Assembly: GCA_034432135.1 (NCBI GenBank)
Contig: DAOUCO010000069.1
Coordinates: forward strand, 1 to 56,023
Direction of reading: 5' to 3'
DNA: 56,023 nt
Source of the DNA: Dehalococcoidales bacterium
Lineage (GTDB): Bacteria > Chloroflexota > Dehalococcoidia > Dehalococcoidales > RBG-16-60-22
How positions within the stretch are numbered: position 1 is the first letter of the stretch; each line of letters starts with the position of its first letter. Of the stretch, positions 18,265-37,244 are shown one piece after another. The notes beneath the pieces are model-generated. The model saw only the letters and a program-made list of their open reading frames with translations, had not been told where the DNA came from and searched no databases. A program made the position numbers and the translations under genes.

Positions 18265-19440
18265 ATGAAATTAGTTGTGGTTGGTTTCGGGCAGTGCGGC
18301 GGCAGAATAGCTGACGAATTCGCCCGCTTAAATAAAAGAGCACTAGGCTTGCGCGGTTTAAACCTCATCACCGGGGCTTATGCCGTCAATACGGATATAG
18401 CCGACCTCAGCGGGCTGACGACGATTAAGTCCAACTTCGAGCACCGAATACTTATCGGCAACAAAAAGACGCAAGGTCACGGCGTGGGAAAAATCAACGA
18501 GCTTGGCGCGGAAATCGCCCACGAGGATGCCGATAAGGTCATCGAGACAATCAGAAGCACAGAACACTTTGCCGAAACAGATGCATTCCTGCTTTGCGCA
18601 GGGGCGGCGGGGGGCACAGGTTCTGGCGCAATATCCATAATGACGCAGCAGATAAAAGAGCGCTACGTAGATAGACCGGTCTACAACCTTATAGTATTGC
18701 CATTCGAGCATGAGGTCGCTACGGAGGAAAGGACGGTATATAACGTAGCTACCTGCTTAAAGTCCAGCTATCTAGTGGCAGATGCCATATTTCTCGTCGA
18801 TAACCAGAGATACGTGATGAAAGACGCTTCATTGATAAACAATCTTACTCGAATTAACATGATGATTGTGAAACCATTTTTCAATCTTCTTTGTGCCGGC
18901 GAAGAGAAAAGGACACGATACATCGGCGCCAAGATTCTGGATGCCGGGGACATCATCCAGACCTTAGTGGGCTGGACAACTATCGGTTACGGAAGGTCAC
19001 AGACGGGAATATTCAAGTCGTTTCTCGGCGGGCCTCGCGACTTCCGTAAAAAAGCCTCGGAAACCCAGCGTGGCATTCACGCCCTTGATGAAGCTATAAC
19101 CAGCCTATCCGTCAAGTGTAATCCGCTGGACTCAAAACGGGCGCTTTATCTGGTATCCGCTCCCGCCAAGGAAATCAATGTAGACCTGATAAAAGAACTC
19201 GGTACTTACATTAAAAATATGGCGCCAGAAGCCGTCATCAGGAGCGGCGATTATCCGAGAGAAAAAGGCAACCTGGATGTCACCGTAATTCTCTCGGAGA
19301 TGAGCGATGTGGAGAAGGTAAGGAGCTATTTCGCCAAAGCCATCAGACTCATCGCCGAACTGAAGAAACGTCAAGAAGGCTTAGTAAGCACACAGCGAGA
19401 GATTGATGTTTCGATTAAAGACATTCCCTCGCTGTTATAA
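18265..19440 (+). CDS. Tubulin/FtsZ-superfamily GTPase, CetZ/tubulin-flavoured (paralogue 1)
   Basis: T1 GFGQCGGRIA, T3-like GHGVGKINELGAEIA, tubulin signature AAGGTGSGA, base-contact LVDNQRYV, T7-like LDAGDIIQT, and C-terminal KDIPSLL. Confidence 0.8.
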   Translation: MKLVVVGFGQCGGRIADEFARLNKRALGLRGLNLITGAYAVNTDIADLSGLTTIKSNFEHRILIGNKKTQGHGVGKINELGAEIAHEDADKVIETIRSTEHFAETDAFLLCAGAAGGTGSGAISIMTQQIKERYVDRPVYNLIVLPFEHEVATEERTVYNVATCLKSSYLVADAIFLVDNQRYVMKDASLINNLTRINMMIVKPFFNLLCAGEEKRTRYIGAKILDAGDIIQTLVGWTTIGYGRSQTGIFKSFLGGPRDFRKKASETQRGIHALDEAITSLSVKCNPLDSKRALYLVSAPAKEINVDLIKELGTYIKNMAPEAVIRSGDYPREKGNLDVTVILSEMSDVEKVRSYFAKAIRLIAELKKRQEGLVSTQREIDVSIKDIPSLL

Positions 19441-19593: not shown

Positions 19594-20079
19594 CTATCTG
19601 GCTATCTTGGAGTAAATTTGCCAGGCCTGTTCGATAGTCTCGTCGCGAACCTGCCAGGCTCGCTCGATGGTGCTATCACGATTATTGGCGGCTTCGGCAA
19701 TTGCCGCTTCATAAGCACTATCAGCAGACTTTACAGCGCTCTTATATTCTTCTTCAGCCTGCTGTATAGCCGCTTCCCGGGCGCTGGCGGCATTAGCTAA
19801 CGCTTCCTCCCGCTGTTTCATCGCTTTAGCTACAGCAGAGGCATAAGCGCGAGTAGCCTGCTGTTCTGCCCGACGGTAGGCTTTAGCTACCTGCATTTCA
19901 TTCTCGTGATAAGCCTTAGCGACCTGCCGCTCGGCGTCCATATAAGCGGCATAAGCCCTTTCGGCCTGACTCATTACTTCGTCGAGAGGATTGGTAGAGC
20001 GTTCTTCTTCTTCTTCTTTTGGTTCTTCAGCTTGGATGGCTTCTTCAGCCGCGTGACCTTTTTTCTTCTTGGTAGGCAC
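19594..20079 (-). CDS. Hendecad-repeat alpha-helical protein with a Lys/Glu-rich N-terminus
   Basis: 161 aa with RBS AAGGAGGTG. Aromatic residues recur every 11 aa (Y46/57/68/79, Y112/123, W142/153). No TM segment or signal peptide. Confidence 0.7.
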   Translation of the reverse strand: MPTKKKKGHAAEEAIQAEEPKEEEEERSTNPLDEVMSQAERAYAAYMDAERQVAKAYHENEMQVAKAYRRAEQQATRAYASAVAKAMKQREEALANAASAREAAIQQAEEEYKSAVKSADSAYEAAIAEAANNRDSTIERAWQVRDETIEQAWQIYSKIAR

Positions 20080-20253: not shown

Positions 20254-22353
20254 TTAATCTTGATCGTCCTCATCCTTAGATTCTTCCTCATCAGGCTTTA
20301 ATTTTTTAGCTTCATACATTTTAGAGAGCAGTTCCAGGCGCTCCGCCATCTTTTTTCTGGCTTCTCTGGGTGTTTCCCGAAGAGGTTCAACAGGTTTTTC
20401 TTTATGCATTTTGCCGAGTTTGCCTGTTTTATCTAATTTCTTTACCGATTCTTTCAAGGTATCGAGGACCGCCTTGGTATCCTCAATAGTGGCTTCGGTC
20501 TCTTCTTCAGTGTATTCCCTGGTTTCATCAACCGGCTGTTCCTCCGCAACTTCAGGGACAGGCTCCTCTTCTTTTTTCTTGCTCTTTTTAACAGCTTCCT
20601 CACGTGACTTCGAAGCAATTATATCGTCACCGATTTCTTCAGCGGCAGGTACAGGCGAGCCAGTGATTCTCCCGGTCACCCCGGCTGCTATATCCGTAGC
20701 TTCTTTGATAGCTTTTAGAGTTCTTTCCGCTGATTCTCTAGAAGCCCTAACGAGGGCATCAGTCACTTCGCGGGCAGTTTTTACCGCCGCTTCCGACGCC
20801 TCTCTGGTTTCAAGGCTGATTTGCTGCGCCCTGGCAATGGCCAACTGTATTTCTTTTTCTGTGGATTCAGCCAATTTTCTGACAGACGAAATAGTGCTAT
20901 CGATAGTCTCACGGACAGTGTTTAATGCTTCTTCAGAAGCCTCGCGGGCGGAGTTATTTATTTCGTTGGCAGTTGCTATGATTTTTTCAGATTCTGTTTT
21001 TAAAGACTCGATAGCTTCACGCGCCGTCCTGGATGATTCTTCAGCCGATGCCCGGGAGGCATTGACAATTTCTTCAATGCGACTGATTAAGTCCCGGAGC
21101 TCTGCAGTAGTGGCAGCCGCTCTTTCCGAAACTTCTTTGCTTATCTGTTCAGCTCTAAAAATAGCCTCCTTTGATTCCACCACCGATTTTTCGGCCGCGG
21201 CTTCAGCAGCAGCGGCGGCTTTTTTCCCTTCTTCCTGGGCTTGTATGATAGCTTCCTGTATCGTTTTTACCGATTCATCGGCAGCTTTGACAGCATCGCT
21301 GCTGGCCTGTTCCGCCCTGGTAACAGCCTCCTGGAATTTGCGGGCGGCTTCAGCGGCATTTTCTTTAGCTTCTTGGCTGATGGCATCAGCGCGGGCAATA
21401 GCATCCTGGGCGGCTTTAGTAGCGGCTTCCGTAGCCTCATGTGTTTCACGGGCTACTTCTTCAACTCGTTTAATCGTTTCCTGAGCGGCTTTTTGCGCTG
21501 CTTCAACAGCCTGCTTCATTTCACGGCTGATAGCCTCAACACGATTCATAGTTTCCTGGGATGTCCTGTGTGAAGATTCAGCCAACTCACGAGCAACAGT
21601 ACTAATAGTTTCGGCGCGTTTGGCGGCTTCTTCCGATACCCTAGCGGCAATTTCAGCACTTTCCCTGGTTGACTTACTGACTTTTTCAGCTTTTATGCTG
21701 GTCTCTCTGGCGATTTTATTGGTATTATCAGCGGCGTCTTTAGCTTCTTTAGCTAAACGTTCAGCCCGCGTGGTAACTTCTTTAGCAACTTTAATAGATT
21801 CTTCGGCTGCTTCCTTAGCGGATTTTACGGCTAATTCAGCTTTACTGAGTGCATCTTGAGATATCTCTCTGGCAGATTCAGCTGTTTTTTTAGCTTCACG
21901 GCTTATCTCTTCGATACGGCTCAATCCGGTTTGTGACAGCATTAATGCAGACTCGGCGGACTGCATGGCATCCCGGCTGATTTTTTCTGCCCGGGCGATA
22001 GCTTCCTGAAAAGCCTTAGCCATAGCCTCGGTGGTCTGCTGGGGGCGTTTAGCAACTTCTTCGGCTTTTTTAATAGCCTCATCGGCGGCCCTCAAGGTCG
22101 CCACCATAGCTTCCTTGGATTCGCGGCTGATTTTTTCCGCGCGGTCGATAGCATCCTGGGCGGCTTTAGCCGCTGCTTCGGCGGCCGCCGTGGCTTCTTT
22201 ACCGATTTGCTCGGCACGCATAGCCGCCTCGATTGCCGTTTTGGTCGACCTTCCAGCTGCTTCTTTGGCAGCACGGCTTAAAGCTTCAGCCCTGGCTACC
22301 GCTTTTTCAAAATCGGTAATGTTGTTTTCTAATTCCTGTAACTCCGGCGACAT
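20254..22353 (-). CDS. 699-aa Ala/Glu/Lys-rich protein built from ~21 tandem 25-residue helical repeats plus an acidic/basic C-terminal tail
   Basis: Long uninterrupted ORF with repeat consensus RAExISxEAKxAAExAxKxxQEAIx. No TM segment or signal peptide. Confidence 0.8.
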   Translation of the reverse strand: MSPELQELENNITDFEKAVARAEALSRAAKEAAGRSTKTAIEAAMRAEQIGKEATAAAEAAAKAAQDAIDRAEKISRESKEAMVATLRAADEAIKKAEEVAKRPQQTTEAMAKAFQEAIARAEKISRDAMQSAESALMLSQTGLSRIEEISREAKKTAESAREISQDALSKAELAVKSAKEAAEESIKVAKEVTTRAERLAKEAKDAADNTNKIARETSIKAEKVSKSTRESAEIAARVSEEAAKRAETISTVARELAESSHRTSQETMNRVEAISREMKQAVEAAQKAAQETIKRVEEVARETHEATEAATKAAQDAIARADAISQEAKENAAEAARKFQEAVTRAEQASSDAVKAADESVKTIQEAIIQAQEEGKKAAAAAEAAAEKSVVESKEAIFRAEQISKEVSERAAATTAELRDLISRIEEIVNASRASAEESSRTAREAIESLKTESEKIIATANEINNSAREASEEALNTVRETIDSTISSVRKLAESTEKEIQLAIARAQQISLETREASEAAVKTAREVTDALVRASRESAERTLKAIKEATDIAAGVTGRITGSPVPAAEEIGDDIIASKSREEAVKKSKKKEEEPVPEVAEEQPVDETREYTEEETEATIEDTKAVLDTLKESVKKLDKTGKLGKMHKEKPVEPLRETPREARKKMAERLELLSKMYEAKKLKPDEEESKDEDDQD
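20749..22293 (-). repeat. Coding tandem repeat array (75-nt / 25-codon period)
   Basis: Residues 21-370 split into 14 consecutive blocks of exactly 25 aa, each starting R/K-A/V/I-E/D. Residues 371-535 continue with 25-29-aa blocks. Confidence 0.8.
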
Positions 22354-22578: not shown

Positions 22579-23751
22579 ATGAAACTCGTAGTTCTCGGCC
22601 TGGGACAATGCGGCGGCCGAATTGCCGACGAATTCGCCCGGCTTAATGGTAAAGCTAAAGCAAGGCGCGGTATGACCATAGTTACGGGATGTTTTGCGGT
22701 AAATACCGATGCTGCCGATTTAAGCGGTCTATCCAGCATCCCTAAAGACCATCGGCATCGCATACTTATAGGAGCACGCAAGACCGGCGGCCACGGCGTG
22801 GGAAAAATCAACGAACTGGGCGCTGAGATTGCGAAAGAGGATTCCGATAAAATCATCGAAAACCTGCGTAATACCAAGAAATTCTTCGAGACCGATGCTT
22901 TTATGCTTATCGCCGGGACAGCCGGCGGCACCGGTTCCGGAGCAATTTCCGTAGTCACGCAGCACCTGAAGGAACGCTATATCGATAAGCCGATATGGAA
23001 CCTGCTAGTCTTACCTTTCGAGCATGAAGAAACGACGGAAGAGCGGACGGTATTCAATGTAGCCACCTGTCTCAAGTCCTGCTACTCGGTGGCCGACGCC
23101 GTTTTCCTAGTTGATAACCAGAGGTATGTCAGGAAGGATTCCTCTCTCCAGACCAACCTTACCAAGATCAATGCCATGATTGCCGACCCGTTTTATAACC
23201 TGCTCTGCGCCGGCGAAGAGAAAAAGTCCAGATACATCGGCGCCAAGCTGATTGATGCCGGAGATATTATACAGACCGTAGTAGGCTGGACAGTCATTGG
23301 CTACGGCAAGACAACCGCACCGCTGTTCAAACTGCCGGAGTTGAGGAGTGATTTCCGTAAGAAAGGCGCCGAAATCCAGAAGGGCATCCAGGCGATGGAT
23401 GAAGCCATCAGCGAACTATCGTTGAAATGTAATCCCGCCGATTCGCGGCGAGCCTTATATCTGGTATCCGGGCCTGCCAAGGAAATGAACATGGATATGA
23501 TTAAGGAAATCGGCGATTACATGAGAGATATAGCACCGGAAGCTATTATACGGAACGGCGATTATCCTCGGGAAAGAGGCGTGGTGGATGTTACCGTGCT
23601 GCTTTCCGAGCTTAGCGACGTAGAGAAGGTGAGGGACTACTATCTCCGCTCCACCGATCTCATCCCCGAGTTCAAGAAGCGGCAGGAAGAGACCGAAGAT
23701 AAACTAAGGGCTCTGGAGGACGTTTCTAAAGATATTCCTTCGCTGCTATGA
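22579..23751 (+). CDS. Tubulin/FtsZ-superfamily GTPase (paralogue 2)
   Basis: Colinear with 18265-19440 over its full length, roughly two-thirds identical by eye. Motifs GLGQCGGRIA, GTAGGTGSGA, LVDNQRYV, IDAGDIIQT, and C-terminal KDIPSLL. Confidence 0.8.
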   Translation: MKLVVLGLGQCGGRIADEFARLNGKAKARRGMTIVTGCFAVNTDAADLSGLSSIPKDHRHRILIGARKTGGHGVGKINELGAEIAKEDSDKIIENLRNTKKFFETDAFMLIAGTAGGTGSGAISVVTQHLKERYIDKPIWNLLVLPFEHEETTEERTVFNVATCLKSCYSVADAVFLVDNQRYVRKDSSLQTNLTKINAMIADPFYNLLCAGEEKKSRYIGAKLIDAGDIIQTVVGWTVIGYGKTTAPLFKLPELRSDFRKKGAEIQKGIQAMDEAISELSLKCNPADSRRALYLVSGPAKEMNMDMIKEIGDYMRDIAPEAIIRNGDYPRERGVVDVTVLLSELSDVEKVRDYYLRSTDLIPEFKKRQEETEDKLRALEDVSKDIPSLL

Positions 23752-25925: not shown

Positions 25926-26213
25926 ATGGATAGGCAATATTATGTCTATATCATGACCAACAAATGGAATAGGGTGTTGTATACCGGAGTAACCAACGAT
26001 CTCATAAGAAGGGTACAGGAACACAAGAAGAAGATAACTAAAGGATTTACCAAACGATACAATGTTGATAAATTGGTCTATTACGAAGTCACGGAAAGTG
26101 TTGAGAGTGCTATTCTTAGAGAGAAACAAATCAAAGGCGGTTCGAGAAACGATAAAATACAATTGATAAACACAATGAATAATGGGTGGCGCGATTTGTT
26201 TAGTGAGCTATGA
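25926..26213 (+). CDS. GIY-YIG nuclease family protein (UPF0213-like)
   Basis: YYVYIMTN...LYTGVTNDLIRRVQEH...REKQIK motifs. Confidence 0.85.
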   Translation: MDRQYYVYIMTNKWNRVLYTGVTNDLIRRVQEHKKKITKGFTKRYNVDKLVYYEVTESVESAILREKQIKGGSRNDKIQLINTMNNGWRDLFSEL

Positions 26214-36112: not shown

Positions 36113-36235
36113 ACTCAGGGAAAACGAAGTACAAAATTGTTAAATTATAGCCATCATGGAAATTCATGCCCTTGGTTGGCAGTTGGTTGACAATATTGCC
36201 TTCGTTACAGTATCATACAAGAAATTGAATATTTA

Positions 36236-36320
36236 CTAGGGGAGCTGAAAGGCTGAGAGTCCTGAAAGGGACAACCCTCATTACCTGATCTCGATAATGC
36301 GAGCGTAGGGAAGTGAGAGA
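36236..36320 (+). promoter_or_regulatory. TPP (THI-box) riboswitch
   Basis: GGGGAGC...GCTGAGA...ACCCTCATTACCTGATCTCGATAATGCGAGCGTAGGGAA matches the THI element core. A TTGACA-N18-TATCAT promoter lies at 36187-36216. Confidence 0.85.
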
Positions 36321-36325
36321 TGTTA

Positions 36326-36365
36326 AACCAGAAGGCTAATTATATTTCAGCTTCTGGTTTTTTAT
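36326..36365 (+). terminator. Riboswitch expression-platform terminator
   Basis: AACCAGAAG...CTTCTGGTT stem followed by a T-run, upstream of thi4. Confidence 0.7.
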
Positions 36366-36470: not shown

Positions 36471-37244
36471 TTGGATGAAATAATCATTTCTAAAGCTATC
36501 GTTGAAGACTATACTAGAGAACTTCTCGATTCCATGGAGGTAGATGTGGCTATAGTCGGTGCCGGTCCTTCAGGCTTAGCCGCCGGTTACTATCTTGCCA
36601 AAAAGGGAATAAAAAACGCCATTTATGAAAGAAAATTAAGTGTTGGGGGAGGAATGTGGGGCGGGGGTATGATGTTTAACCGGATCGTTGTCCAGCCCGA
36701 GGCGAAGGAAATCCTGGATGAGTTCGGTATTGCAGCTAAAGAATATCAGAAAGGTTATTATGTTGCCGACTCGATAGAAGCTGTTTCTGCCCTTTGTTAT
36801 CGGACGGTAAAAGCCGGTACTCGTATTTTTAATCTGATAACGGCCGAAGATGTCATGATTAGAGAGGATGACAAGGTCACCGGTTTGGTATTGAACTGGA
36901 GCGCAGTTTCTTTAGCCAACTTGCATGTTGATCCACTGACTATCCGGTCAAAGCTAGTAATAGATGCTACTGGACACGAAGCCCAAATATGTAACCTAGT
37001 TGCCCGCAAAACAGGTCGAAAATTAGCCACCACCACAGGGGGAGTCATGGGGGAAAAACCGATGTGGGCTGAGATAGCGGAAAAGGAAACCGTCGCCTAT
37101 ACCAGAGAAGTATATCCCGGCCTAATAGGGGCAGGTATGGTGGTCAATGCTGTTTTTGGCCTGCCGCGCATGGGACCTATTTTCGGTGGTATGCTTTTAT
37201 CCGGTAAGAAAGCTGCTGAACTTGCCGCCAATTTGCTGAAATAA
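36471..37244 (+). CDS. thi4: Thiazole synthase Thi4 (archaeal/eukaryotic type, non-Cys active site)
   Basis: FAD/NAD motif [21 protein letters not shown] and DATGHEA. TTG start with AAGGAGG RBS. Confidence 0.85.

Follow-up and report, generated by a model that had tools for sequence, protein, structure and literature searches.

The 56,023-nucleotide (nt) contig DAOUCO010000069.1 of assembly GCA_034432135.1, from a Dehalococcoidales bacterium of the phylum Chloroflexota (the whole stretch is called the window below), carries two tubulin-like paralogues, A and B, which both end in the heptapeptide KDIPSLL. This terminal peptide is most aptly seen as the form which the C-terminal tail of CetZ proteins takes in Dehalococcoidales, and it is very probably a docking motif homologous to that tail. 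Judged from their domain content and predicted folds, A and B are CetZ-type GTPases in a bacterium and not FtsZ. The genes and the parts of the proteins considered here are as follows.

18265..19440, plus strand: paralogue A, CetZ-like protein of the tubulin superfamily, 391 amino acids (aa), identified by open reading frame (ORF), Pfam and AlphaFold2 (AF2)
22579..23751, plus strand: paralogue B, CetZ-like protein of the tubulin superfamily, 390 aa, identified by ORF, Pfam, AF2 and Foldseek
19417..19437, plus strand: tail KDIPSLL of A, encoded by aaa gac att ccc tcg ctg tta and followed by TAA
23728..23748, plus strand: tail KDIPSLL of B, encoded by aaa gat att cct tcg ctg cta and followed by TGA
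19312..19416, plus strand: predicted C-terminal helix H11 of A, residues 350-384, as assigned by DSSP in the AF2 model, with the paralogue-specific spacer QEGLVSTQREIDVSI as its distal half
23623..23727, plus strand: predicted C-terminal helix H11 of B, residues 349-383, as assigned by DSSP in the AF2 model, with the paralogue-specific spacer QEETEDKLRALEDVS as its distal half

An earlier note on this DNA had described two tubulin-like paralogues with an identical ending. Both proteins do belong to the tubulin superfamily and are 68% identical (66.7% at the DNA level), and the positions that it gave for KDIPSLL were exact: the peptide is encoded by the last seven codons of both ORFs, directly before the stop codon. 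Within the tail 18 of 21 nucleotides are the same in the two genes and the three differences are all synonymous; the longest exact DNA run anywhere between the genes is 23 nt. Only a single residue is common to A (QEGLVSTQREIDVSI) and B (QEETEDKLRALEDVS) in the 13-14 residues that precede the tail, which therefore stands out as an island of identity. Nevertheless the A/B pair by itself is weak evidence, because seven successive identities have a probability of about 0.07 in proteins that are 68% identical. A third tubulin-like gene was looked for in the window and none was found.

The conservation of the tail in other genomes is far more informative. A scan of species-representative genomes yielded 79 loci, nearly all of them labelled as Dehalococcoidales, Dehalococcoidaceae or Dehalococcoidia metagenome-assembled genomes (MAGs); the nearest were syntenic with the window at about 80% DNA identity. 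Together with the window these loci provided 52 A-type and 63 B-type full-length genes (n=115) from about 60 Dehalococcoidales species genomes. Across the whole set the seven tail positions were 79-100% invariant, and D, I, P, S and the first L were at least 95% invariant in A-type and B-type genes alike. In the A orthologues (n=52) K, D, I, P, S and L were 98-100% conserved and the last L was present in 79%, being otherwise I; in the B orthologues (n=63) every position was 95-100% conserved. The variation that did occur was mainly K being replaced by R or N, the last L by I in the A clade, and rarely S by T. All synonymous codons were used at every tail position, for example four for Pro and five or six for Leu. 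At the level of the protein, strong purifying selection thus acts on the tail of both paralogues, and its conservation over saturated synonymous sites means that it is real and more than chance. Mean column entropy amounted to 0.156 bit in the tail, 1.449 bit in the spacer and 0.707 bit over the whole protein, and only 23 of 385 seven-column windows were conserved as strongly as the tail. The divergence that had been reported ahead of the conserved end is therefore borne out, the spacer differing between A and B, and so is the conservation across orthologues, the tail being kept in the 115 genes in nearly invariant form. A large protein database gave the same picture, in that of the nearest 120 clusters at 90% identity 110 ended in KDIPSLL and seven in RDIPSLL.

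Several criteria place A and B in the CetZ family. Pfam Tubulin (PF00091) was matched with E=4e-30 by A and E=8e-32 by B, and CetZ_C (PF21011) with E=1e-17 and E=5.5e-17, the scores of 64.6 and 62.2 bits lying well above the gathering score of 21.6. In contrast, the ftsZ equivalog model TIGR00065 reached 56 bits against a cut-off of 295.2 and covered the GTPase domain only. The best phmmer matches in the PDB were CetZ1 of Haloferax (4b46, E=3.5e-44), CetZ2 (4b45) and a Methanosaeta CetZ (3zid). AF2 monomer models had a mean predicted local distance difference test score (pLDDT) of 93.5 for A and 93.2 for B, and Foldseek ranked the same three structures (CetZ1 4b46, CetZ2 4b45 and M. thermophila CetZ 3zid) first to third for the model of B. 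The match to 4b46 had E=4.5e-33, a template modelling (TM) score of 0.92 on the target and a root mean square deviation of 2.1, TM scores for CetZ1 and CetZ2 being 0.92-0.93; FtsZ structures followed at E of about 1e-24, roughly nine orders of magnitude lower in rank by E-value. The GTPase signature AGGTGSG is found at residues 115-121 of B (GGTGSG at 116-121), and its G116 and G119 did not vary in an alignment of 48 family sequences. By a hand count of residues on the phmmer alignment to 4b46, D229 of B (LIDAGDIIQT) is aligned with the catalytic E218 of CetZ1. This T7-loop acid is kept in both paralogues (DAGDII), the sequence in A being ILDAGDIIQT.

CetZ is usually called archaea-specific, for instance in PMC11621097. 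The closest relatives of the window at both DNA and protein level were Dehalococcoidales (Chloroflexota) MAGs, so its host is not archaeal, and the flanking ORFs read, from their translations, as bacterial dnaX, recR, recO and serS. CetZ-like sequences in Chloroflexota-Dehalococcoidia have in fact already been reported in a phylogenetic survey (PMC9871819), and some of these database proteins bear the Joint Genome Institute name "tubulin-like protein CetZ". The FtsZ framing of the earlier note consequently has to be divided: the resemblance of the DIPSLL peptide to that of FtsZ stands, but the proteins that carry it belong to the CetZ family, with CetZ_C present, 56 instead of 295 bits for the ftsZ model, and CetZ1 and CetZ2 as the closest folds.

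Because A and B are members of the CetZ family, the nearest precedent for their ending is the known CetZ C-terminal tail. CetZ1 of Haloferax ends in LESLF, a short conserved sequence with exposed hydrophobic residues, and its change to AESGG abolished rod formation (preprint of the Duggin laboratory, bioRxiv 10.1101/2024.04.08.588506). Tails of related type were met across the family. When 1.84 billion cluster representatives were searched exhaustively with HMMER, 76 relatives were returned at E <= 1e-30, and many of those of full length had a similar ending, such as KDLPSLE, KDIPTLL, AELPLLL, GDIPLLL, RIPLLI, AEIPTLDQ, EEVPSLLTGKKKRR, KGLPSLLETEED or QDLPSLLD. Tails of the form D-[IL]-P-x-L-L were present in other Dehalococcoidia and in one archaeon: SKDIPPLL ends a protein of 31% identity which NCBI assigns to a Candidatus Bathyarchaeia MAG. 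Distant homologues of acidic, halophile-like composition had tails of the [DE]-[IL]-[ED]-x-L-F type (DELEPLF, DDLEPLF, KIEPLF, DIQPLF, DIDSLF, DIDSLL, DIESLL). Among 68 full-length representatives of 50%-identity clusters, 19 had the pattern [ILV][PEDQ].L[LFI] within their last 14 residues; of 1201 control ORFs, taken from the same loci, 10 had it (Fisher p = 7e-19), and 0.7% would be expected from its internal frequency in the representatives themselves. KDIPSLL and the CetZ1 tail thus have in common a family, as judged by domain content and fold, a place at the very C-terminus after H11, and a pattern of acidic, aliphatic, any, small, Leu and Leu or Phe residues. They differ in the third motif position, which is Pro here, as in FtsZ, and Glu or Asp in CetZ1. 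The setting is different as well, with a bacterial host and two paralogues with an identical tail.

Two further groups of CetZ-like proteins were encountered. A third, distant Dehalococcoidia type (loci L077-L079; 38% identity, 369-371 aa) is tail-less, ends in ...KKRETQSP and lies in a different neighbourhood. Next comes a 458-aa ORF, the start of which overlaps the stop codon of the CetZ-like gene (L077 10001-12483, L079 9995-12483), and the flanking ORFs of L077 and L079, judged from conserved sequences, look like an AMMECR1/radical-SAM set. The other group (L082-L084, 8001-10305) is a clade of 418-aa proteins with about 40% identity that end in ...AALLPDL and have a gene for a 324-327-aa protein downstream. 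Resolvases, IS605/TnpB-type genes, IS66 transposases and a group II intron reverse transcriptase lie densely around it, which suggests that the context of this clade is mobile or partition-like.

The C-terminal peptide of FtsZ follows the consensus D-[IV]-P-x-F-[LM], with DIPAFL in Escherichia coli and DIPTFL in Bacillus subtilis, and binds FtsA, ZipA and SepF. DIPSLL agrees with this consensus in five of six positions, the sole mismatch being Leu in place of Phe, and the likeness to the FtsZ peptide that was pointed out in the earlier note is fair at the sequence level. Besides the near-identical sequence, the two peptides share the terminal position, and the residues that precede KDIPSLL are poorly conserved between the two paralogues. 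Moreover, some CetZ-like homologues possess extra residues after the motif (for example EEVPSLLTGKKKRR, ADIPLLLAR and KGLPSLLETEED), a short basic or acidic extension which recalls the charged variable C-terminus of FtsZ. On the other side, A and B fall short of the FtsZ equivalog model, the peptide has Leu where FtsZ has Phe, and it follows a predicted helix of fixed length instead of the disordered, length-variable linker of FtsZ. When the last 27 residues of B were compared with PDB chains of at least 20 residues at E up to 10, no FtsZ peptide was recovered, only chance matches to Ssa1 and SdeA. A descent of CetZ from archaeal FtsZ has been proposed (PMC9871819); the tail may accordingly be a legacy of the FtsZ peptide and not a product of convergence, and the findings support the view that CetZ tails were inherited from an FtsZ ancestor.

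A variable linker ahead of the peptide had also been postulated, and here the data speak against the earlier note. The spacer is conserved within each paralogue, with G371 (100%), R377 (96%), G378 (92%) and I379 (98%) kept among A orthologues and E371 (94%), T372 (95%), K375 (92%) and L376 (97%) among B orthologues. Its length is fixed across the family: the distance between the proline of the conserved GDYP motif and the proline of the tail came to exactly 57 residues in 17 of the 31 clusters with a tail, the Bathyarchaeia protein included. AF2 predicts a single unbroken helix of 35 residues before the tail in A (350-384) and B (349-383), with pLDDT values for its blocks of 89, 88 and 82 in A and 84, 86 and 79 in B, so that values of about 79-89 apply throughout. 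The tail itself is a seven-residue coil after the helix in both models, and no segment falls below a pLDDT of 50. According to these models the tail would be carried on the tip of a rigid arm formed by H11 and its extension. Docking is thus still the most reasonable reading of a conserved end that matches the FtsZ peptide so closely, as the earlier note had assumed, but the free, variable linker which was part of that proposal does not hold.

On what, then, might the tail dock? By analogy with other tubulin-like polymers we tentatively favour the adjacent CetZ subunit in a homopolymer or an A/B co-polymer as the receptor, although our confidence in this choice is limited. A short hydrophobic docking peptide (D385, I386, P387, L389 and L390 in B) would be held at the tip of the fixed-length helix H11, its aliphatic side chains would enter a groove of the neighbouring subunit on the outer face of the polymer, and the tail would in this way take part in assembly. 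Because A and B have an identical tail and are always encoded together, one type of contact could serve A-A, B-B and A-B neighbours. A and B might then co-assemble via the shared tail and present different surfaces through their paralogue-specific helical arms. The predicted geometry is like that of CetZ1, and the phage and plasmid tubulins PhuZ and TubZ are comparable too: they possess a long C-terminal helix followed by a short tail which polymerisation requires and which touches the following subunit. The similarity of PhuZ and TubZ to the predicted arm of A and B is one of geometry, and the sequence relationship is limited to the tubulin fold; the contact is known there and only proposed here, and in PhuZ an acidic tail binds a basic patch whereas the tail here is aliphatic with a Pro. 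Two diverged paralogues that are always encoded together (55 loci in the present case) are also reminiscent of alpha/beta-tubulin, BtubA/B and CetZ1/CetZ2. Both members of the present pair keep the T7-loop catalytic acid, however, and a heteropolymer is only a proposal. In Haloferax the structures formed by CetZ2 are dependent on CetZ1, and the two have been suggested to interact, directly or indirectly (PMC13556191).

The adjacent subunit is favoured because of the rigid, fixed-length arm and because of the CetZ1 precedent, docking on the adjacent subunit having been proposed for Haloferax CetZ1 (preprint 10.1101/2024.04.08.588506). Several points nevertheless weigh against it. The CetZ1 contact is itself a model-based suggestion in that preprint, and the high pLDDT of a long single helix is no proof of rigidity in solution. 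Furthermore, the Pro-bearing D-I-P-x-L-L is much nearer to the FtsZ peptide, whose partners FtsA, ZipA and SepF act in trans, than to the acidic tail of the PhuZ type, and the residues added after the motif in some homologues (such as EEVPSLLTGKKKRR) resemble the FtsZ peptide with its variable C-terminal stretch.

Between A and B the window contains two genes for repeat proteins, which had been put forward as possible partners of the tail.

19594..20079, minus strand: 161-aa protein with 11-residue repeats, between A and B, in the same position in 55 loci
20254..22353, minus strand: 699-aa Ala/Glu/Lys-rich protein with repeats of about 25 residues, between A and B, in the same position in 55 loci

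The order gap, A, 161-aa gene, 699-aa gene, B, dnaX was kept in 55 species-level Dehalococcoidales loci (for example L002, 5613-11173). The 161-aa protein consists of about ten hendecad repeats; its lag-11 autocorrelation is 0.33, the mean being 0.13, its hydrophobic period is 3.65, and its ends are invariant (PLDEVMSQAERAYAAYMDAERQVAKAY... and ...ETIEQAWQIYSKIAR). The 699-aa protein, whose length varies from about 640 to 910 aa across species, showed a lag-25 autocorrelation of 0.28; its N-terminus is conserved (FEKAVARAExLSR), and its conserved C-terminal motif, K[MI]EARLESLA[KR]MYExKK, precedes an acidic tail. The periodicity is seen at the protein level only, no tandem repeats being detected in the DNA of the two repeat-protein genes, and comparison of both proteins with Pfam and NCBIfam gave no significant match. 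Sequences resembling consensus promoters, which are weak evidence, precede A, B, the 699-aa gene and the 161-aa gene.

Other loci have a simpler structure. L058 and L059 possess a lone CetZ-like gene between gap and dnaX, with no repeat-protein genes nearby, and the product ends in KDIPSLL or KNIPTLL. In L061 two CetZ-like genes stand in tandem (DELPTLD and KDLPSLL), again with no repeat-protein genes nearby, and L066 combines one CetZ-like gene with both of them. In the Bathyarchaeia locus (L080, 8001-9863) the CetZ-like gene (403 aa, SKDIPPLL) is followed after 24 nt by a gene for an unrelated 208-aa protein. Hydrophobic segments near both ends of this protein resemble membrane spans, and it is possibly a membrane partner. 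The tail is older than the cassette, because it is kept both in single-copy loci and in the Bathyarchaeia locus, where neighbouring repeat-protein genes are absent. That the single-copy lineages have just gap, CetZ and dnaX suggests that the cassette arose by duplication of the CetZ-like gene and insertion of two repeat-protein genes. The repeat proteins are at best later additions and not the original partner of the tail; a functional link of the tail to the 161-aa and 699-aa proteins can only be inferred.

The strongest competitor of the adjacent subunit is docking in trans as in FtsZ, the tail tethering both paralogues to a shared adaptor or membrane anchor that is encoded elsewhere and is FtsA- or SepF-like. 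We regard this as possible but rather unlikely. It would account well for the agreement of DIPSLL with the FtsZ consensus in all but the F to L position and for the basic or acidic extensions of several family members (EEVPSLLTGKKKRR, ADIPLLLAR, KGLPSLLETEED), and equally for a tail that is identical in two proteins whose bodies have diverged by 32%; if CetZ is derived from archaeal FtsZ (PMC9871819), the tail could simply be an inherited FtsZ peptide. A receptor would also be at hand. The dcw peptidoglycan genes are missing from Dehalococcoides and from every high-quality Dehalococcoidales genome examined, whereas mraZ-mraW-ftsA-ftsZ are kept (PMC10608941), and since ftsA is kept in the order, FtsA is available as a candidate receptor and the most plausible trans partner in the wall-less Dehalococcoidales. 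The spacer argues in the other direction, as it is of fixed length and predicted to be helical, unlike the disordered linker with which FtsZ reaches its membrane anchors. Neither FtsA nor SepF was found by BLASTP in the window and about 1.1 Mb of related loci (the queries being E. coli FtsA and B. subtilis SepF), and B. subtilis FtsZ gave, in the same DNA, only weak matches to CetZ-like ORFs. A Bathyarchaeia homologue has the same tail, and no FtsA is known from archaea, although SepF could still serve there. Docking on one of the repeat proteins of the cassette, the 161-aa hendecad protein or the 699-aa protein with its 25-residue repeats, as a filament-associated scaffold is improbable. The cassette of A, the two repeat-protein genes and B is invariant in 55 species-level loci, the sharply conserved ends of both repeat proteins could be binding sites, and in Dehalococcoides mccartyi a hypothetical protein encoded near the tubulin-like gene co-varies with its product in abundance (PMC8163811). 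But the tail is equally conserved in L058, L059 and L061, with no repeat-protein genes nearby, as well as in the Bathyarchaeia locus with its unrelated neighbours, and so it predates the cassette; homologues of the repeat proteins could still be encoded elsewhere in the genomes of L058, L059 and L061. The proposal of the earlier note that a neighbouring repeat protein is the partner therefore finds no favour in the loci that lack both genes nearby and yet keep the tail (KDIPSLL, KNIPTLL, KDIPPLL).

The remaining explanations have to account for the same facts without a docking partner of this kind. A degradation or turnover signal, read by a protease or adaptor and setting the level of both paralogues, would suit a terminal, hydrophobic sequence (...SLL-COOH) common to A and B, and the C-terminal region of FtsZ makes it a substrate of ClpXP. 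This is nonetheless very unlikely, as the conservation reaches D-I-P, upstream of the terminal residues, and as many orthologues and homologues extend beyond LL (KDIPSLLS, KDIPSLLQ, EEVPSLLTGKKKRR), so that a free ...LL carboxyl end is not required; in addition, C-terminally tagged CetZ1 is still functional (10.1101/2024.04.08.588506). Still less credible is a tail that is itself a membrane-targeting sequence. Three aliphatic residues stand beside a Lys, and binding of CetZ1 to liposomes in vitro has been reported, but seven residues with a central Pro are too short for a useful amphipathic helix, the model shows a coil, and the invariant Asp and Pro would be left unexplained. Chance identity or recent gene conversion between A and B can practically be disregarded. 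The run of seven identities, with p about 0.07 at 68% identity, would not in itself be extraordinary, but the tail persists in 115 genes whose synonymous sites are saturated, and the motif recurs in homologues of only 28-45% identity. Chance is refuted by this 115-gene conservation together with the family-wide enrichment of the motif, and recent gene conversion is ruled out by the three synonymous differences in the 21 nt of tail DNA and a longest exact run of only 23 nt.

A functionally required tail of CetZ1 and the presence of CetZ-like genes in Dehalococcoidia are already known, and on present evidence the tail itself is an expected feature of the CetZ family, not a new kind of element. 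In the searchable literature nothing was found on the D-I-P-x-L-L form of the tail or its identity in two obligately paired paralogues, on the 57-residue helical spacing shared with an archaeal homologue, or on the conserved four-gene cassette. CetZ is the least understood branch of the tubulin superfamily; it has been studied only in haloarchaea and has an essential tail with no known binding partner. To this the bacterial branch adds a peptide close to that of FtsZ, which is identical in paired paralogues and carried on a helix of fixed length, and a cassette with two uncharacterised repeat proteins. The heptapeptide is a concrete handle on what CetZ tails bind, and also on how the peptidoglycan-free Dehalococcoidia, among them the organohalide respirer Dehalococcoides, which can be cultivated, shape and divide their cells. 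In D. mccartyi the abundance of the tubulin-like protein btf_0551 shifts with a change in cell morphology (PMC8163811), from which it follows that such proteins are expressed in a cultivated relative; this link is the sole hint of a role in controlling the shape of cells or in motility. More speculative, and improbable as it stands, is an arrangement in which the wall-less Dehalococcoidales possess a four-part archaeal-type CetZ machine, composed of A and B, co-polymerising in the manner of alpha/beta-tubulin, and two repeat-helix proteins, with DIPSLL plugged into FtsA so that one tether serves FtsZ and CetZ filaments. If this were true, it would be the first archaeal-type tubulin cytoskeleton joined to the divisome of a bacterium, and the disc shape of these cells might be determined by it.

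Two further features of the window were noted. A 95-aa ORF on the plus strand (25926-26213), between a ybaB-like gene and recR, contains the pattern YVYIMTN...LYTGVTN...R...EH and looks like a small protein of the GIY-YIG nuclease family. A thiamine pyrophosphate (TPP) riboswitch (Rfam RF00059, 69.4 bits) is located at 36228-36328 on the plus strand, upstream of the ORF 36471..37244.

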